Below, piece by piece: positions 10,008 to 61,639 of a stretch of DNA of 64,000 nt. The first letter of the stretch is position 1. The number at the start of each line of letters is the position of its first letter. A program made the position numbers and the translations under genes. The DNA lies in the NCBI GenBank assembly GCA_964016885.1, contig OZ024743.1:121024001-121088000 (forward strand), read 5' to 3'. The notes beneath the pieces are model-generated. The model saw nothing but the letters and a program-made list of their open reading frames with translations. It was not told where the DNA came from and did no database searches. Source of the stretch: Eledone cirrhosa. Lineage: Eukaryota.

Positions 10008-11034
10008 ATATCTGCCCCCCCCCCATATATACAAAATAAATGTTTTTATTAAGAGCATTTTATTATACATATCTCAAACCTAAATCGAATAAATGCCATT
10101 AAGTTCTTTCATGGATTATGAAGACAAACTAAATTTACATCATTTGAAGTTAGCAAGATAAAAACTAGTTAGAAAACTAGATTAAGAACTAGTTAGAAAA
10201 GTCTTGTAATTGAGTTATATAAGTTGTATACAAAACATTTAATATATTTATCACGGCAATCAGACATTTTGATTTCGTTTCATCTATGCTGTAAACTCAA
10301 GCGTATGTCTTCCCCTTGTAAAACGTCACCATCATAAAATTTATCAAAGATCCAGTTCCTTTCCAGAATAATCATCAAGAAAACCAATCGGATTCAAATG
10401 TATTCCTCGCTTAAAACAGGGAAAAGTCACGAAACGAAATGTGTAGAATGATTAAAAGTTCAAATGAGGAGAGTGAGAAAACAAAGAAAGATATAGACAC
10501 AGTTTTAGGAGTGTTCTAATCAATTTGACGTTGGAGAACAAGTTTGGTAATTCTACGTAAAATTTGCACCTCGTGCAACCGACAAGAGCTTCCCATATCT
10601 CGGTTACTGTTACCGGTTTTTCGCCGAAAGTCGCTACAGGCCTTACGTCCGTTACGGCCTACGACCCCCTCTTAACAGAAACAGTTACTCAAAGTTCTGC
10701 TAAAAAGTCTCACACATTTGCCTGGAATCGAGCAACACGCTGTACCTCTGTCACTCGGGCCCATCGAACAGTACTTCTTTCAAGAACCTCACTTTTGAAG
10801 AGTAATTAGATACTCCCAAATTGCTTGGTCTTTGCAATGAACTCTATGTCCGGAATGAACTCGGGGTTGTGGGGGCATCTCCTGACTTTTTTGGATTTGA
10901 TGCTGATACATCTGATTGTAAGAGATTTGTTTCGTCGCTGCCAACATCTCAGGTGGAACAGTTATGTTAGCCCAGGTTTTCTCAACTGTTACGTGGCACT
11001 GTTGGTTAAGAGGGCATGCGCCTTTCACTTCCAG

Positions 11035-11385
11035 TAACGGATGCCCTCTTAACCAACAGTGCCACGCAACAGCGGTGATATATGAAGATTTAACCTCCAA
11101 GCCAGAAACAGCATCCATGAACCTGGACAGAGAGCCGTTTCTTTAACCATGAAACGACTTTCAGATATCCAGACAAGTACATACCATTATGTTCACGAGT
11201 CACGTGTGGAAACGCAAAGAAATGGCATAAATACTGAAATGGCATAAATACTGAAATGGCATAAATACTGAAAAATTCCAGTCCCTACATTAACCGTTCG
11301 AAAACTGCTTATGTACTGTTGAAACGTGGGATATATTTACACAACAGTTTACTAAAAAGAACTGCATGAACACTCGCTTCAATAT
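11035..11385 (+). pseudogene. Degraded Penelope-like GIY-YIG endonuclease fragment
   Basis: Frameshifted segments GCPLNQQCHATAVIY, RFFNHETTFRYPDK, SHVWKRKE, SPYINRSK parallel the protein at 38118-38594; 32-bp fold-back 10986-11072 at its 5' end; 17-bp triplication at 11220-11272. Confidence 0.6.
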
Positions 11386-11925
11386 TTGGTCACACGGAAC
11401 TTAATTTTTTCTAAAGGAATGGTCTAGCCCGGACTAAAATTCGATTTAACTCTGTTACGGGTGATCTCACTGAACACAAGTTAGCCCCCTTTTCCGTTTC
11501 AAAATTTTCAGCCATACCTCTTACAAAATTTACTATATCCACATAACAACCTTAGTTCCCTACCCCTAGTTTTAGATATCTCCTATACAATCAATAACCT
11601 CCTCGGAAGTAACTCTATTGCAGAATGGAAGATTGAATGAGTTGGCATTAAGGCGAATGAAACTCGATTATTTACCTTACACCATCTTTGCGAACTGATT
11701 ATATATAACCCATTCCACGGACTGGGTGCTCTAACCTCTAGAATATTTCATACTAAGTTTTTTCACAATATATATATGTGTGTGTGGGTATGGGGGTGTC
11801 TATGTGTGTGTGTGTATGTGTGTGTGTGTGTATGTGTGTGTATGTGTGTGTGTGAATATATATGTGTACAATATATATATTTAGAAAGAGAAGGGACGGA
11901 GTGAGGAAGAGAAAGAGTTATATAA

Positions 11926-14297: not shown

Positions 14298-17200
14298 GAA
14301 GGAAGGGGGGGGGGGCTGTTATGATTTTTATTATATTGATTCTTATGTGAAAACGCTTAGTTTTGTTTTTGTCTGAAGCAGGAAGTGTTTCTAAGTGTGA
14401 AATACATTCCGTTTTCTGTATAGAAAGAATAATGCAGCAGAAAATTATCAGCTTATCTCAAAGACCCTTTGGATATATTTTTCTCAAATACTACAATTGT
14501 TAAACTCGATGCTTTTCCATATAACTCTAACAGTTATAATAAAAAATTGTACTGTATGTTTGTTTTGTAATACTATTCCATTTGATAACACATCGCCAGA
14601 AACCTCCCTTGTTTTATGATACACAACTTCTCATTTTAGAATATTCATACTTATATTAAATCCTTCCATCAATATATGTTAATTGATACACACAGACAGT
14701 GTATTTCATTAGAAATACAGTAACAAAAGTAATAACCACATTTTCGACTTCATTTATAAACATATAAATTCTATTATTCTTAAAATATGTTCGTTATAAA
14801 AAGTGTGACACATTTGTCATACTTGTCATAGAATTAAATTAGTAATTTATCCAAATGACTGATATATCACAATTACTCCAAATCATTTCGTGAATTAGAC
14901 AATCTTGGAAGGAGCCATTTCCTAAAGGCATAATAGAAATGGAATTCAGTGACAGGCGAGTTGATGATTCTTTTGCGATTTAATGTTCAGTTATATCTGC
15001 TTCTGACTGCCTTTGCTGATGCATTGGCTATTACTTTTGCTGCTGCTGTTGCTGTTCTTTCACGCATCGTTTTTAATGCCCCTTTTCTACTATAATTGTA
15101 GGAAAGCAGCTGCCTTTGCTTGGGCTGCTCTGGCACTCTATTATATGACTCATACTAAATTGTTAAAACCACGAGTTCAGTTTCAATAATACAGGTCAGT
15201 TACAATAATACAATATGACGAGATTTGCTTTCAATTTGTTTAATGTCCTTTTATTGTAACGAACAAACCAAGCTCCAAATTTAGGTCAACTGTGAAATAG
15301 ATGTAGCGTTTTGTGTATTTCTTTCATGTGAGATGAGCATATTTTCAGAATGTTGTGAGTGTATCTAAATATTCATTATAAGTAAATTTATATTTCCAAA
15401 ATCTGAATAGCTTGGAATGAGCAATCACGAGGAATGTACAAGACACGCTGACAATCTAAATATTACTGCAATTTTAATATTTTCTGTCGCTGATAGGTGC
15501 TATATTGCAGTAAATGCTAGGCTTGCTTACTTTTCGGGTGATCTTACATTGTTCTTCCTGTAAATAGTCTGAACGTAATCTCAGAACATTAATTATCTAG
15601 TTCTATTGTTGGCTTTCTGGTTTTGCTGCCTCATTGACTAAGTTTGTGGCTTCCACGCTAAAATGTCTCACAAAGTATATATGTGTTAAAGATATACAAA
15701 ACCAGCACAAAAATAACCACGAAACTGAAACTTTTTCAAGCTATCCATAGCAAAATTGGTCATTACAATAGTTAAATAAATTATTATTTCTGCAAACATA
15801 CCAATTTCTTTAAAATTATAATTTATATTGTATGAATCAATTTCATATGAGGTAACATAGAAGGGCGCATAGTCAAAGACTGGTGGTTCAATTTAGAATG
15901 TCTAATTGTTACACGTGTGGCAGTAAGGGCATTCTAAGAGTTTTCTGACCAGGAGACGAATTTGAGAGACATAGATCTTTCTTTGTCTGATTCATCGTCC
16001 GAATTACTCCCGAGTAGTTTTGGAGGAAATAGTATTCAGTATATGGACAATAAAGTGAGAACATAGTGATCAAAGATGCGAAATGCGCTGTTATTGATCC
16101 AGGAGTCTGTGTGTTTTCCTTACATTATATCATTCAAATTGCAACTGCGTTTATATATATTCATTTAATTATTTTGTATAAATTAGCACATTAGCATGTC
16201 TTAATATATCCTAAAATATTTTGAACACTTTCACAAAATGGCAACAGAAAATAAAAGAATTATTATATCCGTTTAGGTCTATACATATTTGGGTTTCATA
16301 TTTCATCGAATCAAGATGCTTCATGAACTACTATATACTAAAATACTACATCAAACGTTGTGCCTATTTAGCAAGGATGAATATTGAAACGGCATAGTTA
16401 CATTTCCCTAGTATATTCACAGTCATTTCCGTAAATTCTGGAATTTCTTTAACAGTAATGATGAGCGACTAACGCACAATTTATATATGAAGCCTTATCT
16501 CTTTTCCCAATTATATATTTATTTCTCTTTTCCTCATACCTCTTTGCTTTTTTTCAAAATCTACTCTATTTTTTCCACTTTAAAACTTTTAATATTTCTT
16601 CTAGCTTTTTTATGCAAACTACTCTTGTTATCTAGGAGAATAATCAGTCAGATCACATTTAATTAGATACTTGAATAAAAAGGACGAACGAAAGTAATAT
16701 ATGACAGTTTACCAATGTAACAAATGTAAGAATATATGTATATATATATAAATGTGTGTCTGTGTGTGTGTCTGTGAGAGAGAGATAGAGTGTGTGTGCG
16801 TGTGTGCGATCGCGCGTGTGAGTATGTGTGTGTGTCTGTGTGTGTATGTATGTACATGGCGCTATAATCATCCCATGAATATTGCTATACGTGTAAATTA
16901 CTTGCAGAGACATAATAGAAAAGGGAAGAACAACTAAACAACATGAAAGGATGCATTCTCTGTGTAACGAATGTGATAGCTAAAATATATCTGCTTTCTT
17001 TGCCACAATTTGGCATACAGAGATTTCTTGTCGAGATTCTACTATGATGCACTTCGTAACAGACTGCTGAAAAAAATCGATTTCAGGATTCTTTGCTGAT
17101 GAGTAATCTATTGAATCGTTTCCATAACTTGTCAACATTATGCATCGAGATAAATGTCAAGGGTCTTAGACTGAAAAAAAAAAAGAAAAGGAATCTTATG

Positions 17201-18189: not shown

Positions 18190-18297
18190 CTCGGACTCGA
18201 GTTTCGGCCGCACTTTATGCAGCAGTAAGGTGCACTGCACCATCCGTCTGCATATACTATGCAACAATACATCGGCTTATGCGGCTTCATCAGCGGG
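18190..18297 (-). ncRNA. Type I hammerhead, canonical core, within a pLTR-like segment (about 18041-18450)
   Basis: Minus strand CCCG-CTGATGA-A GCCGCA...TGCGGC C-GAAA-CTCGAG-TC-CGAG; palindromic stem III, GUC site. Confidence 0.8.
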
Positions 18298-18469: not shown

Positions 18470-19422
<953 letters not shown>

Positions 19423-21989: not shown

Positions 21990-22353
21990 CCAGCTGTAGT
22001 CGGCACTATCAACGCATGACTGGGCCTCCTCCACCCCCTCTCCCTCTTTCTCCTACTGGCAGGTTCAGCTACCCCTTCCTTCCACAAATTGCCATGATAG
22101 AATTATTATGTCTCAACAACAAACTTTTGACCAATCCTTGTGACAATCACTTTTACCATATATAGAATTACCCCTTGAGAAGCTCGGCTATTCAAATACC
22201 AGGATAATTTTCATTTAGTCTAGAATTAGCCGTCGAAACGGCTTGAGCTCAGCCGTCGGGGTCCTACTCGTTCCTATTACCCACTCTACTACCCTAAGTA
22301 TTGAGTACTTTGGTGCGTTATGGTCCACCTGGTTCCTTACCACATTTCCTCCG

Positions 22354-29500: not shown

Positions 29501-31199
29501 ATTTAATTTACTAATTATAAAACATAAAGGATTATCGAATAAAATATGCAAGGTGGTTTTCATAATAGAAATTATAAATAACAAACGAGGTGTAAACAAA
29601 ATTGTAAAGGGATATAATTTCGAATACCAAAATACTAGAACTTTGTGTGCACTACATGAGTATAAAGTATTGTTACACTGACTACAACGTGTCCTTGTTT
29701 TGAGAAAAGTACGGCTATCCCCTACTGTAGTGTAATACTAAAATATCCAGCGCAAAAGGACTGGAAAATGTCAGTGAGCAAATAATTAGAAGAGAAAAAT
29801 GCAATTAACTTTCAGCTAATGAAATATCAGTAGATATAAAAATACAAATAGCTGCACATTTACCTTGATTGGTATTGTCGAGTTCTACTCGTCGATTCTA
29901 TGGATTGAATTCTTACAGTCTACATGAGAAGTGACGTACAATTTTGTTAGTTTTATTGAGGATGTGGGTATCGATATCACACAAGCCAGAACACAGCTGC
30001 TTTTAAAGATACATGGGTAAAGGATACAAGTGATTCATTTTGTGCCACGTTGTGTGTCTTAGGTCGAGCTGAGATGTGTAATAGAGCTGGATTATTTATT
30101 CTTAATATTTTTATTTTATATTTCATAGTTCGGACAACAGGCATGCATAAGGATATTGATATAGTTATTTCAAACAATGTAAGCATACACAAAGTTGATG
30201 GAATAAGATTATTAGTACCATTAAGGAATTGGACTTAATCTCACTGTAATTTCTAATATCACATTATTCGATATCCTAGATGTAAGCATATATCTGAATC
30301 TAATAAATACAATCCATACACACACACCAAAATGAAAATAAAATGATATCGACTGAAACTCCAATCATTAATCCTCGCTGTTTAAGCAATGCTAGTAGAA
30401 AAGATCCCCAAACCAGTGTGTCGTCAGTCAAGGGAAAGTTTAAGAGATGTGCAACATGCTTGTAGTGATGGTGAATGGTGTATTCCACAAACTGATTAAA
30501 TTTACTGCCGAACTTGAACCATCTCCAACTACTGGAAAGAAACATAATGGCATTAACGGATCTAATCCTACGTTCAGTCAAATATGCAACTGAAAGTTAC
30601 CAAAAATGTCTTAAATTTGATCGAGAATCATTTCTCGATATGTAATAGATATTCAATATTTCCTATCGAGAAAGCATAACAATTATTTATTATAGGTTTT
30701 CGAAAATATGCAAACATCATCACTTGTAATAAATTCTCTAAATGTCATCAAATGATTATAATTGTATGTGTATAGTCAGAAATGAAGGCGGATGACTCAG
30801 TTGATAGAGCATCAGGCTTACAATTTACGTTGTGTTCATGAACAGGAGACTTAATTTTCCAGTTATATATATATATATATATGAGAGTGTGTTGAAGTTT
30901 GCTTGAAGCATTGAGGAGTAATAACAATAGTCGTTTTGCAATGCAGATGGGTAAATCTCTGGGTAACAGAATCAGGTGATAATGAGAGAGAGAGATGCAA
31001 GAGGAAGCATAGAAAGAGATATAGAGAGCGTAAAGGAAAGTAGGAAAAAGCGTAAAAATAATAACACAAGATAAATTTACCTAGGAAGTGATTTGATAGT
31101 CCCTATATTTCAGATTTCGCATCCATCAACTTAGGGTTTTCCGAGGAGAAAAGTTGTCGGAGAGTGACAACATGTGGCCTCCGATGTTTACTGTGTGCG

Positions 31200-37029: not shown

Positions 37030-37601
37030 ATGTGTGCGTATATGTGTGTGTATATATCTATATCTATCTATCTATCTCTCTATCTCTCTCTCTCTCTCAC
37101 ACTCTCTCTCTCACTCTCTCTCTCTCTCTATATATATATAGGAAAAGTATGACCCCGACGGCAGAGGTCAAGCCGTTTCGACGGCTATTTCTGGACTAAA
37201 TTAGAATTTTTAGCCTGGTGAATAAATAGCCGAACTTTTAAAGGGGGTACTTCCTTATATGGGAAGATTGTAGTTGTCAAGAGGATTGGTTAAAATTTGT
37301 TGTAAACACAAATAAGTCTATCATGGCATTTGGTGGGAGGTAGGGGTGGCTGAACTTGCCTGTAGAAAAATAGGGCAGTGATAGGAGCGGTCAAGCGTTG
37401 AAAATGATATTTTATACAGCAGATTCTGAGGATAGAGTATGAAGTGGAGGAGGGAGGTTATAGGTAAATCTAATAAGAGTAGGAGACAAAAAAAGATATT
37501 AGAAATAAAAAAAAATATATATATAAAATTAGATAGTGAGAAATGAATAAAAAAAATCACAATGCTATCTTACAATTACAGGTTAATAAGTTGAGAAGTA
37601 C

Positions 37602-38594
37602 TTCGAAAATGATCTGTACTACCCATACAGGAAACCAAACGACAACCTGCACTACATCCACCGCCGCTCTAACCATCCTAGAAACATCACCAATAACCTG
37701 GTTAAAAACATCTCCTTCCGCATATCTCGTTTGTCCGCTAATGAGCATATATTCGACGAACACGCGCCTCATTACAACCAGGCCCTCGAGCGGGGTGGCT
37801 TCCGGGAGGAAATATCCTTTTATCCAGCTCCCCTTAGCGGATCCTGCAGGCGACACCGCTGCTCACGCAACGCAACGTGGTTCAATCCTTCCCATAATGC
37901 CGAGGTGGCAACACCTATCGGGAAACTCTTCTTTAGACTCTTCGAAAAATACTTTCCACTACAACACCGCTTCTACAACTTAATCAACAAAAACACCATC
38001 AAACTCTCCTACAGTACCACACCTAACTTCGCACAAAACATCGTCTCCTCAAACAACAAATAACTTAACCCCTATGGAGGAAATAACCTAGACATCAGTG
38101 GAGAGCCGACCAGGAGGTGTAACTGCCCTGATAGATCTACGTGCCCCCTCAACAACAAATGCCGAGAACGTAACGTGATCTACCAGTGCAACGTGAGGAC
38201 GGACACCTCCAACAAAGCTTATATAGGATTAATCGCGTGTGACTTCAAGATTCAGCTCTACCAACACCGACATACTTTCCGAAACCCGGTCCAGCGACAT
38301 GCCACTACACTTTCGGGACACATCTGGGACCTCCAAGATAATAATATAACCTACAATCTCACTTGGAGCTTACTGTCCAAAGCTAACTCTTACACGGGAG
38401 GACGCCGTCCGTGTAACTTATGCTCGGAGGAAACATTAAAAATGCTGTTTTCGAAGGAAACATTACAAATGCTGTTTTCGAAGGACCAACTCCTAATTAA
38501 GAAAGAGCAACTGGTAACCGCATGCAAACAATTGCGTATGACTTACCTCGCCCTCAAACCCCATAACGACCGGGAGAGAGGGGACAAGGGCTGA
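37602..38594 (+). pseudogene. PLE RT thumb plus C-terminal GIY-YIG endonuclease; one frame with one premature TAA (38061-38063)
   Basis: YRKPNDNLHYIHRRSNHP; CNCPDRSTCPLNNKC; VIYQC...YIGL; HRHTF; TLSGHIWDL; CNLCSEE; 27-nt tandem duplication (ETL.MLFSK twice). Confidence 0.92.
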
Positions 38595-39257: not shown

Positions 39258-39352
39258 TCCCTTGAAAAGTTCGGCTATTTATTCACCAGGCTAAACATTC
39301 TAATTTAGTCCAGAAATAGCCGTCGAAACGGCTTGAGCTCTGCCGTCGGGGT
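39258..39352 (+). ncRNA. Type I hammerhead, U3-A8 variant, in the PLE 3' pLTR
   Basis: TCCC-TTGAAAA-G TT CGGCTATTT...AAATAGCCG TC-GAAA-CGGC TTGAGCTCT GCCG-TC-GGGG. Confidence 0.8.
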
Positions 39353-41453: not shown

Positions 41454-41905
41454 AATGAATAATAACAGGTAGACATCATAAAAAGGTAATTTATTCCGTG
41501 TGCTTACAAGTCTTTCCACGGTGGTACTGCAGCCTAGTTATGCTACGTGCAAATTAACAAGTACTTGCAGAACTCGAATATCCAATGCTGTGACCATTCT
41601 GCTCTGAGGAAACAGTGGTCACAGCATTGGATATTCGAGTTCTGCAAGTACTTGTTAATTTGCACGTAGCATAACTAGGCTGCAGTACCACCGTGGAAAC
41701 ACTTGTAAGCACACGGAATAAATTACCTTTTTATGATGTCTACCTGTTATTATTCATTCTTTATATACACTCCGGAATACTGAAGGATCAGGAACTAAGT
41801 TTCTTGAACAATTCTTCCATAACTCGTAGAGTAACCTCTTACCGTACGTCAACCATATCCAGTGTGCTAATTAACCATTACTACATCTTGGATAATCCTA
41901 TACCT

Positions 41906-44260: not shown

Positions 44261-45059
44261 ATATTAACAAATGGAAACTATATTTATAAAACCATATTTA
44301 TTTCATTATACATATTTCAAGGGCCACTAAGGCAAACTATGGTGCGCTTTCATCAGATAAAATATAATATAGGTTAGTTTTATAAATAAATATTGACATA
44401 CCCTGAAAAGAAATGCAGCCATTCTGGTTGGAATCTCCTGGATAGTGGAGTTATTATATTTATTGTTGGTTTATTATGCAAATTAGTGTCGGAAAGGTTT
44501 AAATAACAGTATATTTAAATTAAGCCGTTGGAATAGGGCAAAAAGAAAGAAAGAGAAAATAAGATAAAAAACGAAAGAAAGGAAGAGAAAAAAACCTGGG
44601 TATATTTAAGTGAGAGAGAATAGCGTAATTTTGAGAGAAGAGGCGAAGAAATAAATATTTATTTATTAAACTAACCTATATTTGGATTGGCAGTATCGGT
44701 AGAGGGTCGGACGCCATGCTTTGACGCATAGAATTACGGCCCTTGCCATTCTCAGTTCAAATCCCGCCGAGGTTAACTTTGCCTTTCATCCTTACAGGGT
44801 CGATAAAATAAAGTACCAGTAATACACTGGATAATTGCTGGCCTTGTGCCAAAAGTAGAAACAATTATATTTTATCTTATGAAAGCGCACCATAGTTTGC
44901 CTTGGTGGCCCTTGAAATGTATAATGAAATAAATATGGTTTTATAAATATAGTTTCCATTTGTTAATATATTGTATATTTACTCCAATAATTTGTTGAGT
45001 GCTTTATATCAGTTATAAAAATATTTTGCTTGTTTATCCGAACAAATTAAATATAACCT

Positions 45060-47950: not shown

Positions 47951-48266
47951 TAAGAACAACAAAATATAATAAAAAAGATATAAAGATTCGGACAACAGAT
48001 CCTGAGAGGCACCATCACCTAGTCCAGGAAATAAAATCATACACACCCAGACCAAACAAAAGCACACCTGCAACAATACTAACTGACAACATAACCACCA
48101 TCGACACCACCATCAACTTTACAACAGTCACAGCCACAACCAGCCAGAACTAAAAATTAAAACGCACAAACACACAAAAGCAACAGCAAACAAGAGCATA
48201 TAGACTATACCTCGTGTTAGCGAGGAGGACAAATAAAGAACTAATACCCTCCTAACACGAAATAAT

Positions 48267-48444
48267 TGTTTCTACTTTAGGCACAAGGCCAGCAATTACC
48301 CAGTGCATTACTGGTACTTTATTTTATCGACCCCGTAAGGATGAAAGGCAAAGTCAACCTCGGCGGGATTTGAACTCAGATCGTAAAGGGACGTAACTAT
48401 GCTAGAAAGCATGGCGTCCGACACTCTACCGATATTGCCAATCC
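48267..48444 (-). mobile_element. Young SINE with 12-bp TSD
   Basis: TSD ACACGAAATAAT at 48255-48266 and 48445-48456. Confidence 0.93.
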
Positions 48445-48899
48445 ACACGAAATAATGTCATTGAGAAAGACGTATATATCTTGATAATGGTCCGTATGTC
48501 CCTCTAGACTTATAAAAACATTAAGGAAAGCTTCCCTCCAAGGATGTGGGAAATGTTAATGTAAAAACCACAAGTAGGCTTTTAATGGGGTTTCCAAAGG
48601 AACCACACTAACTAGAGATGGTGGTCGAACGACCCAATCTACAACAGTACCCATATGACGTCTGCTTTGGCTTACAAGCCCAGACTTTCACATACATACA
48701 GGTATGCATCCCTCACAAGAATGAGTCCCTTTCAAACCCCGTTCTCGCAGCGGACTAATACCCCCATATCTTTATTGACCCGCTTCACTTCAGCATGCCC
48801 CCTCCTGCTTCTTTTTAAATTCCTTAATACTAGTAGCAATCAGATTTCACCACTGGTCTCTGTCAATGGCAAGATTTTTTCCCATATTTCGGTGTTGTT

Positions 48900-49565: not shown

Positions 49566-50676
49566 CACACCACACATACATACATATCTATATGTATATA
49601 TATACACAGAGGTATCCACTGTAAGTTGTGGGGTCTATTCTGTATGAAGAACTCAATGTAATCCATATGTTGAAAATGTTGTAGGTTATGATAAATCTCA
49701 GAAAACAATAAAACATTAAAAGGAAAACAGAGTCATGATATAAGTTAAAACAATGAAATAAAAAATCAAGTCATTAGAGATATACTTCACTGCTTTACGA
49801 TCGTTTCTCGATGGTGATAATACATTGTATCTATACTCAGTTATTGATCTATGTAAGTTTACAAACCATCAGATAGAGAGAATATTTACTTACATGCATA
49901 TCACCAGCTGTTTTCAAAAGCAATAATAATTTTATTCAATAACAATTTTACTCAGAATTAGTATCATGTCCATATTTGGAGGTAGTTGAAGAAATAACGA
50001 ATTAAATTGTTTTTTTCATATGGTGTTAAGATGAAAAGTAATACACTTTAGTTGAGGTCATGACCCTTTTAAAGGAATGGTTAAAAGGTGTTAGTAGAAA
50101 TGGCATAAAAATCTATTAGGAAGGAAGGGGATTGTCAAACTGATAGTTGAATGTATCTTGTATAGTGAATTTAAAAGGAATGTCAAAATAAATGCTGATT
50201 AGTGTTGTATTGAGTTTTAAGGTGAATATAAATTAATGTTATGGCTAGGAAAGATAGTATATTAAAAGATGAAAATTATAATAAGATAATGTGGTATAGT
50301 AATGCGATAATATACAACTTAACCAACAGCATATAGTACGGTGTGTTAAATTGCACTCAGTATAATATAACATACTATACGCTCTAAAATATTACTAAGT
50401 ATGTTTATGCATAAACAATCAAACTCAGATAAGTACATGTTGGCATAGTTAAAACACATAAATTTCATAGTCTACAAAGTGCACATATTCACACCACATA
50501 TAGAGAGAGGTACAGTTATATTGATATCCAAACAAAATATACATACGTGCAAATAGATGCAAACCTAAATACACATCCACGCGCATGCATATAATCATAT
50601 ATATACATATTCATATATATCTATATCCACACATACACATATACCCCCATATATACATATACATATACAGATACAT

Positions 50677-50729
<53 letters not shown>

Positions 50730-51055
50730 TACATACATACATATATACATGTACATACATATAGACACACACATACATACATATATACATACGCATTTAC
50801 ACATATATATATATATATACACATATATATATATGTATATATACATATATATATACATATATATACACATACATAGACACACATATATATATATATATAT
50901 ATACATATACAACACACACACACATACACATATATATATATATAGACACACTTGTGTGAGCATGTGTACACTAATCTTACATGTGCACACAATCATATAT
51001 AAACATTCATACATCTATACTCACATATACACACGCACAAACACATATATACCCC

Positions 51056-51090
<35 letters not shown>

Positions 51091-51240
51091 ACACACTCAC
51101 ATACATATACACTCCCATATATATATATATATATACACATATATATACACACATACATATACATATACATATACATACATACACACATACACATACATAC
51201 ACAACCATATACATATATACACATATACACATACATAAAC

Positions 51241-51339
<99 letters not shown>

Positions 51340-51699
51340 AATATATACACACATAAATATATATTCCATATCATACATAGCTGTTTATTTTCACTCATGT
51401 GGTTGTGTATTTTGTTGCCTTTAGTCATTAACGCATAAATCTAAGGAAGCTAAAACATTAAAAGGCAAAAATAAGCATGAATGCATATAATTAGGGGAAA
51501 GAGGTACTAATAAATGTTATTCTATACGGAATTATAGTGAGTTACTATTTAGAATTTTTAATTAGGTTTATTATATTTAATTAAGTTTATAGTATTTAAT
51601 TAGGTTTATAGTATTTAATTAGGTTTATAGTATTTATATGTTTTTCGTAAATGTTTATAGTATTTAAATGTTTTTCGTAAAGCGGTAAATAATTATAAA

Positions 51700-51912
51700 A
51701 AGAAAAAAATACATTTTAAGTTATTGTGGAACACCATTCTACAAAAAACTCCATATCTTGGAAACAGGAGGGAATGCAGATTATGTTCAGGAGAGATCTT
51801 GGAAATTATTAAATCTAAGGACGATTTATTAAATAAAAGACAGGAATTGATCATAGTCTGTAATCACCGTATACGAAAAACATTTAACTATAAACCTAAT
51901 CAAATACTATAA
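51700..51912 (+). pseudogene. PLE GIY-YIG C-terminal fragment
   Basis: WNTILQKTPYLGNRRECRLCSGEILEIIKSKDDLLNKRQELIIVCNH. Confidence 0.85.
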
Positions 51913-52161
51913 ACCTAATTAAATATTCTAAATAGCAACTCACTATAATTCCGTATAGAATAACAATTTCCCCTAATTATATGCTTTCATGCTTATTTTT
52001 ACCTTTTAATGTTTTAGCTTCCTTAGATTTATGCGTCAATGACTAAAGGCAACAAGGTACACAGCCACCCGTATTTGCATGAGTGAAAATAAACAGCTAT
52101 GAATGATATGGAAATATATTTATGTGTATATATTTGTGTGTATATATATATCATCGGGAGA

Positions 52162-52565
52162 GATGACCCCTTAGCCTTTGTCAAGGCAGAATTCTAGGAG
52201 AAGGAAAACTCTGATATAACACCTGCAACCCTGATGGTATCCAATGATGTTGACTTGTTCTTCTTTTTGGTAAATATCATCTTGGTTAAGAGAGTGGGAC
52301 TGGCTTTGTGCAGTGCCTTTGCTCACTATAAAAGCTTCACGGCACAGGCATTGCTTTATATCTGGAGATCTCTCTGCACTTGTCGTCACATGGTAGCATG
52401 GGCCCAGCACTATGTGTCAATAATTGTCACAAGTGTAGTGTTTGTACCAGAGTTTTCATGTCGCAGGCTGGACTAAAAAGTCACACTTGTTCAGCGCTTC
52501 GGTAGGGGTTCTCCTACATGGATATAAAGTAGTGGCCGTACTCGAAAACGAGTTGGCAGCCACCA

Positions 52566-52570
<5 letters not shown>
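52162..52570 (+). mobile_element. Bipartite RTE-derived retroposon
   Basis: Near-identical to 17632-18027. Confidence 0.85.
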
Positions 52571-52647
<77 letters not shown>

Positions 52648-52804
52648 TTATGTATGTGTATATGTGTATATATGTATATGCTTGTGTATGTATGTGTATG
52701 TGTATGTATGTATATGTATATGTATGTATGTGTGTATATATATGTATATATATATATATATGGTTGTGTATATATATGTGTATATATATATATGTATGTG
52801 CATG

Positions 52805-52835
<31 letters not shown>

Positions 52836-53158
52836 ATATATGTGTTTGTGTGTGTGTATATGTGAGTATAGATGTATGAATGTTTATATATGAGTATGTG
52901 CACATGTAACAAGAGTGTACATATGCTCACACAAGTGTGTATATAGATATAGATATGTGTATGTGTGTGTGTGTGTGTTGTATATGTATATATATATATA
53001 TGTGTGTGTGTATGTATGTGTATATATATGTTTATATATATATGTATATATATATATATATGTATATATGTGTATATATGTGTATATGTGTATGTATATA
53101 TGTATGTATGTATATGTGTGTCTATATGTATGTACATGTATATATGTATGTGTGTGTG

Positions 53159-53189
<31 letters not shown>

Positions 53190-53194
53190 ATATT

Positions 53195-54055
53195 AGAATT
53201 GTTTTAGAGTAGTGACAGTCTCACTTACTTTAAATTTTCAGCAAACAGGGGGAGATAAAGCTGACAGAGCTATGTTTCATACTGATTGGTACTTATCAAA
53301 GCCAAGTACCCCACCTGTTTGCTGAAAATCATGAATGTTTGATTCTTATAGAATTTCTAATAATAATCAGGAATTGATTATACAGAGCGGTTGCCGGTCA
53401 AGCAGGAATTGAAAATTAGAATTCGCGCTCTGAAATAGCTATATATATATGAATGTATATACAGTGTATTTTGCAATACATTGTATGCTTAATTAAAAAC
53501 ATTTCGAAGACCTTATGCTATTGTTCGGCAAACAGGTGAGGTACTTGGCTTTGATAAGTACCAATCAGTACCAATCAGTACGAAACATAGCTCTGTCAGC
53601 TTTATCTCCCCCTGTTTGCTGAAAATTTAAAGTAAGTGAGACTGTCACTACTCTAAAACAATAGCATAAGGTCTTCGGAATGCTTTTAATTAAGCATACA
53701 GTGTATTACAAAATACACTATATATACATTCATATATATATATAGCTATTTCAGAGCGCCAATTCTAATTTTCAATTTCTGCTTGACCGGCAACCGCTCT
53801 GTATAATCAGTTCCTGATTATTACTAGAAATTCTATATGAATCAAACATTCATGATTTTCAGCAAACAGGTGGGGTACTTGGGTTTGATAAGTACCAATC
53901 AGTACGAAACATAGCTCTGTCAGCTTTATCTCCCCCTGTTTGCTGAAAATTTAAAGAAAGTGAGACTGTCACTACTCTAAAATAATAGCATAAGGTCTTC
54001 GAAATGCTTTAAATTAAGCATACAGTGTATTGCAAAATACACTATATATTCATTC
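53195..54055. mobile_element. Retrozyme-like element: inverted monomer (53198-53525) plus tandem copies (53528-54055), period 324 nt
   Basis: HHRs at 53259-53303 (minus), 53547-53601 (plus), 53881-53925 (plus). Confidence 0.88.
53881..53925 (+). ncRNA. Compact type I hammerhead, U3-A8 core, GUC site
   Basis: GG(C/G)T-TTGATAA-GTAC CAATCA GTAC-GAAA-CA TAGCTC TG-TC-AGCT; enclosed by TTTTCAGCAAACAGG / CCTGTTTGCTGAAAA. Confidence 0.85.
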
Positions 54056-54933
54056 ATATATGTGTATGTATCTGTATATGTATATATGGGGGTATATGTG
54101 TATGTGTGGATATAGATATATATGGATATGTATATATATGATTATATGCATGCGTGTGGATGTGTATTTAGGTTTGCATCTATTTGCACGTATGTATATT
54201 TTGGTTGGATATCAATATAACTGTACCTCTCTCTATATGTGGTGTGAATATGTGCACTCTGTAGACTATGAAATTTATGTGTTTTAACTATGCCAACATG
54301 TACTTATCTGAGTTTGATTGTTTATGCATAAACATACTTAGTAATATTTTAGAGCGTATAGTATGTTATATTATACTGAGTGCAATTTAACACACCGTAC
54401 TATATGCTGTTGGTTAAGTTGTATATTATCGCATTACTATATTACATTACGATCTGAGTTCAAATCCCGCCGAGGTTGACTTTGCCTTTCATCCTTACGG
54501 GGTCGATAAAATAAAGTACCAGTAATGAACTGGTGATTTGCTGGCCTTGTGCCTTAAGTAGAAACAATTATCTTATTGTAATTTTCATCTTTTAATATAC
54601 TATCTTTCCTAGCCATAACATTAATTTATATTCACCTTAAAACTCAATACAACACTAATCAGCATTTATTTTGACATTCCTTTTAAATTCACTATACAAG
54701 ATACATTCAACTATCGGTTTGACAATCCCCTTCCTTCCTAATAGATTTTATGCCATTTCTACTAACACCTTTCAACCATTCCTTTAAAAGGGTCATGACC
54801 TCAACTAAAGTGTATTACTTTTCATCTTAACACCATATGAAAAAAACAATTTAATTCGTTAGTTCTTCAACTACCTCCAAATATGGACATGATACTAATT
54901 CTGAGTAAAATTGTTATTGAATAAAATTATTAT

Positions 54934-55065
54934 TGCTTTTGAAAACAGCTGGTGATATGCATGTAAGTAAATATTCTCTCTATCTGATAGTTTGTAAACT
55001 TACATAGATCAATAACTGAGTATAAATACAATGTATTATCACCATCGAGAAACGATCGTAAAGCA
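54934..55065 (+). ncRNA. Type I hammerhead, U3-A8 core, long stem II (mirror copy on minus strand at 49791-49922)
   Basis: TGCTT-TTGAAAA-CAGC TGGTGATA...TATCACCA TCGA-GAAA-CGATCG-TA-AAGCA. Confidence 0.78.
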
Positions 55066-55113
55066 GTGAAGTATATCTCTAATGACTTGATTGTTTATTT
55101 CATTGTGTTAACT

Positions 55114-55175
<62 letters not shown>

Positions 55176-55179
55176 TATA

Positions 55180-55237
<58 letters not shown>

Positions 55238-55436
55238 GATAAATCTACCAAGAGTTTACGGTAGTGTCCAATCCGTATGAAGAACTCAATGTAATCCGGA
55301 TATCATGGAAAGAAGAGATGCAATGAAATATCACTTTCGGTGAAAGATAAACGGAATACAGAGTCAAGATAAAATATTAAAAAAATAATGAATAAAACAA
55401 TGAAACAGTTCCTTATATTAAACAAAAAAAGTTCAT

Positions 55437-55576
55437 TATTTAACGATCGTTTCTAGGATATATATGTGTTAGAATTGGCATGCATATTCAACAGATCTAT
55501 GTACAAAATTATACAAAATTATACAAACTATCAAGATTAAATATACATACCAACACATATATATGCCGTCTTCAGA

Positions 55577-55580
<4 letters not shown>
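55437..55580 (-). ncRNA. Type I hammerhead, canonical C3-G8 core, long stem II, in pLTR fragment 55235-55580
   Basis: Minus strand TATTT-CTGAAGA-CGGC ATATATATGTGTT...AACACATATATAT CCTA-GAAA-CGATCG-TT-AAATA. Confidence 0.8.
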
Positions 55581-55652
<72 letters not shown>

Positions 55653-55659
<7 letters not shown>

Positions 55660-56919
55660 TAATGAAATGACAGGAGGCTGGATTTGTGTAAATCCTTGAA
55701 AGGTTTATTATACTATGATCATTTCAATGACCGGGTTCCGTATGAATCCGGTGATATCATCAGGTATTCGAAATATAATACGTGAATGTAATAGATAAAA
55801 TCCATGGGGCTGAAAATCGAGGACTCGAGGGCGACCGCTATTCTGTTCCTTCAACCTCAGCCGGTCGCCCTGGAGTGACGTGGCGAAAGTTTATAGTATG
55901 CTACTACCGGTCAGATAAACGAAAACAGAAAGGGATGGGAGCATAAGTTAACGTCGATCTCATGACACAAGGTAAAAGAAAGAAAGGAAGGAGAGAGAAG
56001 AAAGGGGAAGAAAGAAGAAGAGAAGCCAGGGTTAATGTCAGCTAAAAGAAGAAAGGCAACTACTACCGGTCAGATATAGGCAAGCAAGAGGGGGAAGGAA
56101 GATAAGTCTGCGGGAGGAAGACAGGAAGAGAGGAGAAGAGAAGGAAGAGAAGAGAGAAGTAGAAAAGTAAGGGTTGATGGCTACAAGAAGGAAGATAGAA
56201 AGAAAGAGGAAGAAAGGTCGATATTAATGTCAGACCACAGTCAAGCCAGGAGTGGCGCGAGAAAATGTTCACAGGGACCCGCATCTTAGCAGAGGTGAAT
56301 ATATTGGGAGTCAGTGTGTTACAGTGTTTAGACTTCTAGGATGAAGTTAAAAAAATTAATAATCAATATTCAATATTAAAGAGGTTAGAAAATTTAAAGT
56401 TCAACAGTTTAACATTTTATTATATAATAGTTCCGATTTGTTCTTTAATTTAAAGGTACTATGTGGCGGTTAAAACACCGGCCGCGCCTCGGGCCCCATG
56501 GCGAATTAAGCTACGCCGAGTATTTTCATTTACTGAAAGAAGGGGAAATTTATTTTTCCAAGCACTCCAGGTGAGCTCGTTCGCCAGGGAGCTGGTCGCG
56601 CCGCCATTAAAACCCACCCAACAGTCCGACAGAAAGTTGGAACTTTAAACTTTCACGTATTATATTTCGAATACCTGATGATATCACCGGATTCATACGG
56701 AACCCGGTCATTGAAATGATCATAGTATAATAAACCTTTCAAGGATTTACACAAATCCAGCCTCCTGTCATTTCATTATAATATTTAACTCCGTAATAGC
56801 ACCACCAACTACAAAAACAAAGACGGTTGAACTGCTTTACGTTGAGTACTCTCTATATTATTACATTACGATTGACCATACGGAATAGACCAGCTCTATA
56901 CAGTGGTGAACCTCAAACC

Positions 56920-56922
<3 letters not shown>
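55653..56922 (+). mobile_element. Non-autonomous PLE-like element with inverted pLTRs (55653-55786 / 56652-56785), in (TA)n
   Basis: Perfect ~134-bp inverted repeat containing an HHR; noncoding purine-rich interior. Confidence 0.88.
56671..56728 (+). ncRNA. Minimal type I hammerhead, canonical core (mirror copy on minus strand at 55710-55767)
   Basis: ATAC-CTGATGA-TATC ACCGG...CCGGT CATT-GAAA-TGATCA-TA-GTAT-AATAAA. Confidence 0.85.
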
Positions 56923-56959
<37 letters not shown>

Positions 56960-56963
<4 letters not shown>

Positions 56964-57707
56964 CACCAACATCGGTGTTGGTGAATTCTTTTAAGAAAAC
57001 AACAACAAAGAAGTTGGTTTGCAAACTCATGCTCGCCCCCCTCCCCCCCTGTTTCACGCCTGTCTCAACTAAGAGATGTTCTAGTTGCTTACAATTGACG
57101 CAATCATATATGAACCTATAAGCTCATTCAATCATGTAATGGACCTCTAAGCTCTGTAAACTTCTCAGGGAAAGCCAACTTCATGAGTATACACCAAAGG
57201 GCTTACCTATTGACTGTGTCAAAGACTTCATGTGATCAATAAAAGAATTGTACAGATCAAGCTGTTGCTGTGACCCGTTCGTTCTGATCGGAAAACAAAC
57301 AGATTCCAGCAGAAGGGTAGGTGGAATGTGCATCGGCAGATGATTAAGAAGAATACTGGAAAATATATTTCCATAAATTGATGATAAATAGATCCCATGG
57401 TAGTTGTCACAAACAACGTTGGTTTTCTTCTTCAAGAGGGATTCCAGAATGGCATCCTTCCACTCCTGTGGCATTGCATCCTTCAACCACACCCGGTGAA
57501 TGCGCATGGCTTAGTGGTTAGAGCATTAGGCTTGCAATCGAAAGGTTGTGAGTTCAATTCTCGGACCGGGTGATGTGCTGTTTCCTTAAGCAAGACACTT
57601 TATTTCACGTTTCTCCAGTTTACTCAGCTTCAGAAATGAGACGATAGGATACCTCCAATGAGATATACCTTGGAGGAGGCCAGCTAAACCTGCATAGGTA
57701 TAAGCTG

Positions 57708-59720: not shown

Positions 59721-60800
59721 TGTGTTCCTCCGCCATTTCACCGGTTTTGGTTTTTCTCCCTCAAAATATCCCAAATATCACGATCTTCACCAAGCTAGCT
59801 TCATGGGATTGTCAAATTAGTCGCCGAGGATCCGATCATGCAACAGCTTATACTAGGTTACATATTACCAGTTGCGCTCGAGTGCGACCTCACATACATG
59901 CATGCATACATACATACCTACATGATGATGATGGCTGCCCCCTCGTTATCGAGTATGGCCATTGCACGTTATACCATTATTAATAATTATTAATTAATTC
60001 TATCGTGCAATGCCTGTGCGTGAAGATATATTTTAAAGTGAGGAAAGACTGTGCATGCATACATGCATACATACATACATATCTACCTAGTTGATGGTGT
60101 GTAAATTCCAATGAGAGAGTCTTGTGTCTACGTTAGAAACCGTCTCTCTCTCTATTGGCAAACATTTGTGAAATTATAAAACCAGAAGAACATACATACA
60201 TATATACACACCTAAATATATCGCCGAATACATATGAGTTGGTATAAGTGGACTACACATTATTTTGTCGTCATTACACGTCATACACGTTATTTTTCCG
60301 TCAAAAATATCTCGCCACTAATACAACACTGGAAAAATCATTATCTTCTTTGGCTAAAGCCAAATGAGTCCATCTAAACCAATTTTAGAAGTAATCATGC
60401 CATAAATTGATCTTGTAAATAACATGTGTGTGATTAAAGACAGAAAACATATCGTAGTTTGTAGAACTATCGAAAGGAATTTCAATACACTTTTGAATCA
60501 AAACATACCAGGTGATTACATGAAGAGGGAGAATTGCTATTTGTAATATGAAACTTCTGCTTTACCCATGCTTCATTATAAAGTACTTGTGCCACTAAGA
60601 CGAATTCATTCAGAAGAGATACGGCAAAATTAGCCATCATAAATTGTACACCGTATCAGTATATCTATTGTGAGGAGGACGAGAGAGAGATGGAGGTGAT
60701 GGCAGTGGGTGTTCGGCTCTTCCGTGTTCGGACACATTGCACCTGTTATGATTTTATCATACATAGGTTTATTTTTCTCTTATTATTTTCCTTACTTAGA

Positions 60801-60990
60801 GGGCGGTGGATTGGCAGTATCAGTAGAGGGTCGGACGCCATGCTTTCCAGCATAGTTACGTCCCTTTACGATCTGAGTTCAAATCCCGCCGAGGTTGACT
60901 TTGCCTTTCATCCTTACGGGGTCGATAAAATAAAGTACCAGTAATGCACTGGGTAATTGCTGGCCTTGTGCCTAAAGTAGAAACAATTAT
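60801..60990 (+). mobile_element. Young full-length SINE with ~19-bp TSD
   Basis: ATTATTTT(C/T)CTTACTTAGA at 60782-60800 and 60986-61004. Confidence 0.95.
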
Positions 60991-61639
60991 TTTTCTTACT
61001 TAGAAGATACAGTAACGTTAATGGCGGAGAAAGAAAAAAATTTCACAAGACATTGACAGGAGAGCAAATTTTACATCAGATACATCATCAATATAACCTA
61101 TCATTATTCACACCAATAGATTTTGTTCGCGAAAAAATTACTTAAACCCCGAATCGCGACTAAATTAAAAACGGTAACAATAATACTGCTGCGTTAACAC
61201 GGACACATTTACAGAGGAATAGAAATCAGTGAAGATTACAAACAACTTGAAACATAGCTCACAGAAAAATCGAAGCAGAACTTCACTATTTACATCGATA
61301 AACCACTAAACAAAACAACGATTATAACACGAGTCGATAGGAAAACCTACTGACTTGATATTATTCGTGATCGATCAAGCTGCTAAAGAACACCTAGCAC
61401 AAATTGAAGCTCCCAGCTTTTGAACATTAAATGTTCTACTATATTGTCTTGCAATTATTATTCGCCAGCAGATAAGAGAACAGAGATCGATTGAAATGAA
61501 ACATACAACCGAAATGGATCAACTCACTTCAAAGAAAAATTGACAATCTGCGGGGGAAAATGAGAGAATTCGATACTATCATCAAATGCGATGTAAATAA
61601 AGTATTCATGAACTAACCAGCTTCAACTGTATAATAGAC

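Follow-up and report, generated by a model that had tools for sequence, protein, structure and literature searches.

Neighbouring hammerhead motifs, likely from Penelope-like retrotransposons of Eledone cirrhosa, carry a matched C3-G8/U3-A8 difference

A 64,000-nt stretch of the Eledone cirrhosa genome (GenBank assembly GCA_964016885.1, contig OZ024743.1, positions 121,024,001 to 121,088,000 of the forward strand; hereafter the window), which has a GC content of 34.5% and is rich in (TA)n tracts and interspersed repeats, contains two neighbouring hammerhead-type motifs of the type I layout on opposite strands. Motif A lies on the plus strand (54934–55065) and has the core UUGAAAA, a 103-nt helix II and a palindromic stem III, ACGAUCGU, whereas motif B lies on the minus strand (55435–55582) and has the core CUGAAGA, a 115-nt helix II and the same stem III. 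An initial annotation had placed both motifs and their cores here without naming a strand, and had described a double change at core positions 3 and 8 between them; all of this agrees with what we find. Specifically, motif A has U3 at 54939, A8 at 54944, G12 at 55049, stem III at 55052–55059 and A17 at 55060, and motif B has C3 at 55575, G8 at 55570, stem III at 55450–55443 and U17 at 55442. In each, the core letters follow the order N3 U G A N N8 A9, G12 A A A15.1 and U16.1 H17, three helices surround the core with stem I open, and positions 3 and 8 form a Watson-Crick pair, U-A in A and C-G in B. Position 17 also differs (A in motif A, U in motif B), and cleavage is predicted after A17 (55060) and after U17 (55442), respectively. 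Stem I comprises 5 bp in A (UGCUU/AAGCA; pairs UA UA CG GC UA) and 7 bp in B (UA UA UA AU UA UA AU). Motif A reaches a (TA)n tract 55 nt past position 17; motif B forms the start of a solo 345-nt copy (55238–55583) that has (TA)n on both sides and no attached ORF.

Comparison of the two motifs indicated that U4, G5, A6, A9, G12, A13, A14 and the whole of stem III are invariant. Two of the five stem I pairs and seven of the eight pairs at 10.5–10.12 are changed on both sides with pairing kept, a count that for helix II may be inflated by a register shift or by helix replacement rather than reflecting stepwise covariation. The base of helix II opens in both motifs with C.A at 10.1–11.1, which is not a canonical pair, followed by A.G or G.U, then G-C, then a C.U or C.C mismatch; beyond this base the pairs run UA GC GC UA GC AU UA AU in A and AU UA AU UA AU UA AU UA in B. 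The C.A opening is not strictly disqualifying, because U.U is tolerated at this place (PMC3088659) and in related PLE loci occurs more often than any other state (9 of the 14 external motifs tallied), non-Watson-Crick combinations being common in that clade. The internal motif ACATAGATC, which together with stem III had been reported earlier as common to A and B, was recovered in both, at 55002–55010 (plus strand) and 55494–55502 (minus strand), with one other, unrelated match at 15969. A second inner motif, GATAGTTTGTA, is likewise common to A and B and stands in the same order relative to it; the two pair as a sub-hairpin. We note that this sub-hairpin in the outer part of helix II (GAU-AGUU-UGUA against UACA-UAG-AUC; 54986–55010 and 55494–55532) is retained between A and B while the remaining helix has changed.

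Motif A has a twin, A2, on the minus strand at 49791–49922 (core U3 at 49917, A8 at 49912), that is 98% identical to it. The two belong to a nested inverted repeat, at the centre of which lies a C-terminal fragment of a Penelope-type GIY-YIG endonuclease (51685–51890, plus strand; HMM iE 1.5e-12, tblastn 2e-14). The left, inverted arm (49598–51700, minus strand) ends in A2, and the right arm (51868–55118, plus strand; 3′ UTR or pLTR) ends in A and is broken by later insertions at about 52152–52567, 53192–54058 and 54450–54566. The arms are 98% identical in their outer parts and 85% identical by BLAST, with indels, in their inner parts. Since G at 11.2, a variant present in fewer than 1% of the family, occurs in A and A2 alike, we treat them as derived from one template and count them once. 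Motif A thus lies downstream of the GIY-YIG fragment on the same strand, across the later insertions and about 620 nt of microsatellite. It likely, though not certainly, belongs to the same element as the fragment; it could instead represent a separate element duplicated together with it. Motif B, for its part, would be connected to a Penelope ORF through its homology to A alone. The insertion at 54450–54566, which breaks the right arm upstream of A, is one copy of a SINE-like high-copy repeat of about 190 nt that also occurs at 60780–60997, at 48260–48446 and at about ten more sites. This repeat may resemble octopus SINEs.

The Penelope elements in the window are 5′-truncated fragments only, and inverted 5′-truncated flanking copies accompany several of the hammerheads (the arms A2/A, E2/E and G/G2). 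One fragment, at 37581–38594 on the plus strand, is a broken Penelope-type ORF (RT thumb and GIY-YIG) with an in-frame stop at 38061 and an inverted pLTR beside it (37139–37597). It has 4134 relatives at E ≤ 0.001, the long ones carrying the RT motif YRDD and a C-terminal CCHH-type GIY-YIG, and the ESM Atlas gave a lead for it at 0.95. Pfam returned no matches for two ORF pieces from the window and found GIY-YIG in only 2 of 15 long relatives, and a search for homologous proteins starting from longer proteins found none. Downstream of the fragment by 670 nt, on the same strand, lies a U3-A8 hammerhead, E (39258–39351; core UUGAAAA), with a stable 5-bp stem III, whose inverted copy E2 (core 37242) carries U in place of G5. 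By these relatives the fragment comes from a canonical Penelope-type element, with the inverted terminal copy and E beside it; inverted 5′-truncated copies are described as typical of PLEs, and hammerheads as typical of their pLTRs (10.1101/2021.04.23.441226). A second member of the same family, D (22170–22262, plus strand; core UUGAGAA), also U3-A8, has the hammerhead fold as its MFE structure. We also observed an inverted pair at 18470–18617 and 19133–19300 with a D/E-type stem III plus GGGG and a long hairpin upstream; it may be a rearranged or inserted variant and, having no stem I by its UUGAGAA, was excluded from the core table. Weak matches to the Penelope profile (iE 0.01–0.05) at 11030–11428 and 30231–30398 are possibly older fragments.

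To describe the motifs we used a type I hammerhead descriptor in which positions 3, 7 and 8 were left free and position 17 was required to be A, C or U. Its top ranks in the window were B (score 22; core 55575, minus strand), A (20; 54939, plus strand) and A2 (20; 49917, minus strand), and eight block-shuffled windows gave a maximum score of 16 with a mean of 0.12 per window. AT-rich DNA might be expected to yield hammerhead-like strings, an A-rich core such as UUGAAAA forms easily, and two neutral transitions could be complementary by accident; the occasional shuffle that scored 16 fits such an origin by chance, as does the outcome with Rfam. The latter gave no hammerhead match in the whole window at the gathering threshold, none among the matches listed (150 of 221) for 36000–58000, and no match at A or at B. 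However, the Rfam miss at A and B is uninformative, since Rfam also missed the hammerheads of 12 of 12 control Penelope loci, which have short canonical-looking motifs. Moreover, the real scores exceed those of every shuffle, the shuffled loci scatter over 12 different 3/8 combinations whereas the real matches are C-G or U-A, and variants within family A leave the core untouched (see below). We therefore consider a chance origin highly improbable and largely refuted. A search of metagenomes with the exact A/B-type pattern gave 0 matches. A borderline Rfam tRNA match in the window (57507–57564, 29.2 bits) is probably the head of a tRNA-derived repeat.

The relatedness of A and B that the initial annotation proposed holds for part of their length. 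The 3′ flanks past the cut site align between family A and family B with a score of 102 (z 10.8, 0 of 500 shuffles), but the similarity of helix II is not significant (z 1.6, 36 of 500 shuffles) and over the first 60 nt past the cut site the alignment is no better than chance (z 0.8). The 3′ motif said to be common to both is real and 23 nt long, with identical copies on the minus strand at 49642–49664 in family A and 55275–55297 in family B; it is carried, however, by the twin A2, about 130 nt past its cut site, and not by copy A. The neighbourhood of the two motifs, by contrast, fails as a sign of kinship, both copies ending in (TA)n like other families in the window. The stretches that do not align leave some room for a different history, in which the hammerheads are real and the ribozyme parts of A and B are not mutually descended, having come together with a shared 3′ end through recombination or helix replacement, so that the 3/8 difference would separate two old lineages and involve no switch. 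The clustering of the endonuclease fragments of A and E, both U-A, at 88/81 support, with long branches, could be read in the same way. We think this history quite unlikely given that stem III is identical in A and B, that both have C.A at 10.1–11.1, G-C at 10.3 and a mismatch at 10.4, that GATAGTTTGTA and ACATAGATC occur in equal order, and that the spacing to the 3′ end is equal.

Across the window we tabulated positions 3 and 8 in 15 cores of 8 families; of these cores eight are U-A (A, A2, D, E, E2 and F1–F3), seven are C-G (B, G, G2, H, H2, I and J) and none is mixed; G5 is lost in two of the 15 copies. The occurrence of U3-A8 in other families, noted previously, was borne out by cores at 22175, 39262 and 53885, to which 53551 and 53299 can be added. 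The last family, F (UUGAUAA), consists of type I hammerheads within a long closed stem I, in three copies of about 334 nt at 53198–54060, two in tandem and one inverted, each with its own small defect. Four other families are C3-G8. Family G (56671–56925, plus strand; core CUGAUGA at 56675, inverted copy G2 at core 55763) has a palindromic stem III, AUGAUCAU, and its 3′ tail shows weak homology to A2; family J (41600–41711, plus strand; CUGAGGA) has an 85-nt helix II and a tail weakly homologous to G; family H (44299–44364, minus strand; CUGAUGA) has a second copy, H2 (core 44876), with G5 changed to U; and family I (18191–18295, minus strand; CUGAUGA), with a palindromic stem III, ACUCGAGU, and a weak 2-bp stem I, is the least secure in the table. 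Rows dropped from the window were 16066 (G-C), 32438, 42536, 8438 and 3983. The window family table gives p = 0.018, or p = 0.10 without G and J, the families not being independent samples.

For an external set, three scans of 41 Penelope loci from metagenomes yielded 18 motifs in 17 loci (L002, L003, L004, L006, L008, L009, L010, L011 with two, L018, L024, L025, L026, L029, L032, L033, L034 and L036). Of these motifs 17 are C-G, one is U-A (L025) and none is mixed, and the family table pooled with that of the window gives p = 8e-5, a value inflated by kinship. Rows dropped from the external set were L002:999 (G-G, within the ORF), L004:-1262 (C-U), those falling below the 12.5 cut-off (L005:2373, U-G, with A at 15.2, a shuffle-level score and a location outside the PLE part; L017; L025:2040) and those with a broken core (L027 and L039); L003 +276 (U-G; GAAAU, without stem I/III), L025 +294 and L037 +587 were dropped as well. 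We note that the exclusion of the two U3-G8-like strings (L005:2373 and L003 +276), made on structure, is a judgement call in favour of the result. In hammerheads of the marine Penelope clade (L002, L003, L004, L006, L010, L011, L018 and L025) helix II mostly opens with U.U, and Rfam misses them; L011 contains two different hammerheads 200 nt apart.

Variation within family A was followed in run X1, comprising 1446 contigs that match the A2 stretch (49600–50100) at 80% identity or more (469, 466, 367 and 144 in successive identity bands). In these contigs no variant at a frequency of at least 3% was seen at 49917 or 49912, or at other core, stem I or stem III positions, with the reservation that contigs drop rare variants and that depth is not copy number. 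The four differences listed at the base of helix II all keep or restore the fold: G to U at 11.2 (99.7%, giving A-U), G-C to G.U (72% and 11%) and C.U to C.C (41%). No lineage intermediate between A and B was seen among the X1 contigs, whose 80% cut-off cannot reach B-like copies. Runs X6, X7 and X8 gave 4, 1 and 1 contigs, respectively, none of which spans the core, and so have no bearing on positions 3 and 8. Loose contig ends in X1 and X6 indicate that other subfamilies retain the 3′ half of the sub-hairpin with a differing apical part. In A2, an ATG starts a short frame across the 23-nt 3′ motif (49666–49605, minus strand) that could begin the next ORF of a tandem; such a role of the motif as an ORF start is unproven, the ATG being missing in B and altered in 17% of X1 depth.

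Mixed states at positions 3 and 8, which according to the initial annotation would speak against its reading if they were as frequent as paired ones in family consensuses, were thus found in 0 of 15 window cores and 0 of 18 external motifs, and X1 showed no variant of at least 3%. Selection on the 3-8 pair is, as judged from sequence, well supported; the catalysis for which the annotation took the motifs to be selected is a prediction. Taken alone, the single double change between A and B, both parts of which are transitions, would be weak evidence of covariation. That the pair has been kept despite a change of both its letters argues for selection on the active fold in these Penelope hammerheads.

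As to direction, the tail of the C-G family G aligns weakly with A2 (z 3.8, 1/300) and with the C-G family J (z 4.4, 1/300), with no clear alignment to B (z 1.7); 45 pairs of tails were tested, and we treat the G-A2 and G-J matches as leads. A common base of helix II, mismatch, two pairs, mismatch, is found in A2, B, G2 and J. The weaker C-G relative G (56675) suggests that U-A is the derived state, and if A, B, G and J form one superfamily, C-G would be ancestral and U-A would have arisen once, on the A branch. We suspect that the change occurred by two transitions, probably via a U3.G8 wobble, in an active master of family A. Repeated independent adoption of U-A by D/E, F and A, another suggestion of the initial annotation, is unproven: the flanks of D/E, F and A do not align with each other, and 2 of 11 branches in the endonuclease tree are starred. 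AT bias as the driver of U-A is likewise plausible but unproven. By family, U-A accounts for 3 of 8 in the window and for 1 of 17 outside it (p = 0.08). Among the 13 loci tabulated for AT content, the external one with U-A ranks second, and the one that ranks first is C-G.

Taken together, our analyses indicate, with a probability of roughly 0.8, that A and B share the type I layout and represent two homologous families, likely pLTRs of Penelope-like retrotransposons, and that the matched swap from C3-G8 to U3-A8 was likely fixed in A because pairing is needed for the predicted self-cleavage. The firm parts of this reading are the core letters and stems, the homologous 3′ flanks, the endonuclease fragment at the centre of the insertion that carries A, and the lack of any mixed 3/8 state. 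Folding of helix II gave z of -2.7 for A, -1.6 for A2 and -7.5 for B. The monomer hammerhead fold lies 4.0 (A) and 3.9 (B) kcal/mol above the MFE, and the stem III palindrome forms a self-duplex of -10.0 kcal/mol. We propose that the 8-nt palindromic stem III would be too weak as a hairpin, so that two ribozymes would pair through it; the dimer would then cut after A17 (55060) or U17 (55442), perhaps with help of the element's protein, and such self-cleavage would process the element's RNA. Dimeric cleavage of PLE hammerheads was reportedly described by Luense et al. in 2017. The copies in the genome are themselves probably decaying.

The motif might instead have been retained for a role other than cleavage, either as a fold bound by the RT or as a DNA hairpin in insertion, the 3-8 pair being a relic or serving that fold. 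Work on PAc (Poseidon) of Anolis carolinensis makes this worth weighing, for there cleavage required protein and was dispensable for insertion in vitro, hammerhead mutants inserted normally and no RNA ends were found at the cut site (PMC11167929). In addition, minimal PLE hammerheads cleave poorly (PMC4209133), and catalysis requires neither the long helix II nor its conserved inner loop. On the other hand, the invariant positions coincide with the catalytic core, the 3-8 pair is part of the active fold, and all curated motifs have A, C or U at position 17, though the scans demanded it. A role without cleavage therefore appears unlikely to us, and predicted self-cleavage remains the reading we prefer. 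Single mutants of PAc at position 3 or 8 are described as losing cleavage, which a G3-C8 double mutant partly restores (PMC11167929). PAc resembles the present families in being a PLE pLTR hammerhead with AT-rich insertion sites and two 3′ end points, but G3-C8 rather than U3-A8 was tested there and the PAc ribozyme overlaps the start codon (PMC11167929).

The U3-A8 swap itself is already published, including for Penelope elements. Perreault et al. (2011, PMC3088659) described this covariation in several natural hammerheads, activity having been demonstrated in vitro before then. The C3-G8 to U3-A8 change seen here is like those natural core variants, which were active in vitro; the variants tested came from phages and bacteria, and the text of that paper describes neither a C.A mismatch nor a pair of families within one genome. 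In Schistosoma mansoni, the U3-A8 variant of the Penelope (Cercyon) hammerheads was found by homology to C3-G8 relatives and has about 1,300 matches (PMC4209133), so that U3-A8, which the initial annotation called uncommon, is not rare in Penelope elements. The motifs described here resemble the PLE pLTR hammerheads of Cervera and De la Pena (2014, PMC4209133) in being of type I, in having a palindromic stem III that implies dimer cleavage and in their location in PLE repeats, as well as in the opposite-strand pairs 100–700 bp apart, the many diverged families per genome and the U3-A8 variant. They differ in having a helix II of 103–115 nt, as opposed to a stem of 7–8 bp, and an 8-nt palindromic stem III, and in having C.A at 10.1–11.1 in place of the conserved G10.1-C11.1 and one extra 5′ nucleotide described there. 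Our literature search, over main texts and passages, returned nothing on these families or on variants with a 100-nt helix II, though such variants may be shown in the supplements of PMC4209133. For comparison, 235 Rfam hammerhead matches are given for a squid genome (PMC6962438). Family F resembles animal non-LTR retrozymes, with tandem units of about 334 nt and type I hammerheads (PMC7229834; 10.64898/2026.07.22.740005), and by that analogy may be called retrozyme-like; A and B, unlike such retrozymes, form no tandem arrays. The term 'U3-A8' is absent from the main text of PMC7229834.

What is unusual in these hammerheads is the very long helix II, and with the conserved inner loop and the C.A opening it could mark a new variant. 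The case is a clean natural one, in high-copy animal retroelements, of a 3-8 pair maintained across a double change; with the swap already in print, what it adds is modest, and the apparent selection on the fold stands against the in vitro work in which cleavage was dispensable for insertion. As by-products, the analysis provides natural pairs on which kinetics could be compared, together with a class of hammerheads with a long helix that is invisible to Rfam. Tentatively, A, B, G and J might form a superfamily of long-armed Penelope hammerheads that share a non-canonical helix II base (C.A, U.U or A.G at 10.1–11.1, two pairs, and a mismatch at 10.4), in which the conserved inner loop of a 100-nt helix II would serve as a docking site for a protein or a tertiary contact and the core pair would have changed from C-G to U-A along a single branch; we consider this possible, though doubtful. 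If it were true, the superfamily and the two other U-A families would offer a series of natural replicates in which to follow compensatory drift at a catalytic base pair under AT-biased mutation.

Finally, the 3′ ends of the copies follow a pattern. In families A and G they lie 55–60 nt and about 200 nt past the cut (49738 and 49598; 55118; 55653; 56925). A2, B, G2 and J all end 191–208 nt past position 17, and 18 X1 contigs and one X7 contig enter (TA)n at the shorter end point. The two end points are thus about 140 nt apart, compared with 30–40 nt in PAc (PMC11167929). Several truncated or inverted copies also start at or within the hammerhead (55583, 44368, 55789 and 41596), as if reverse transcription often stopped or switched there.
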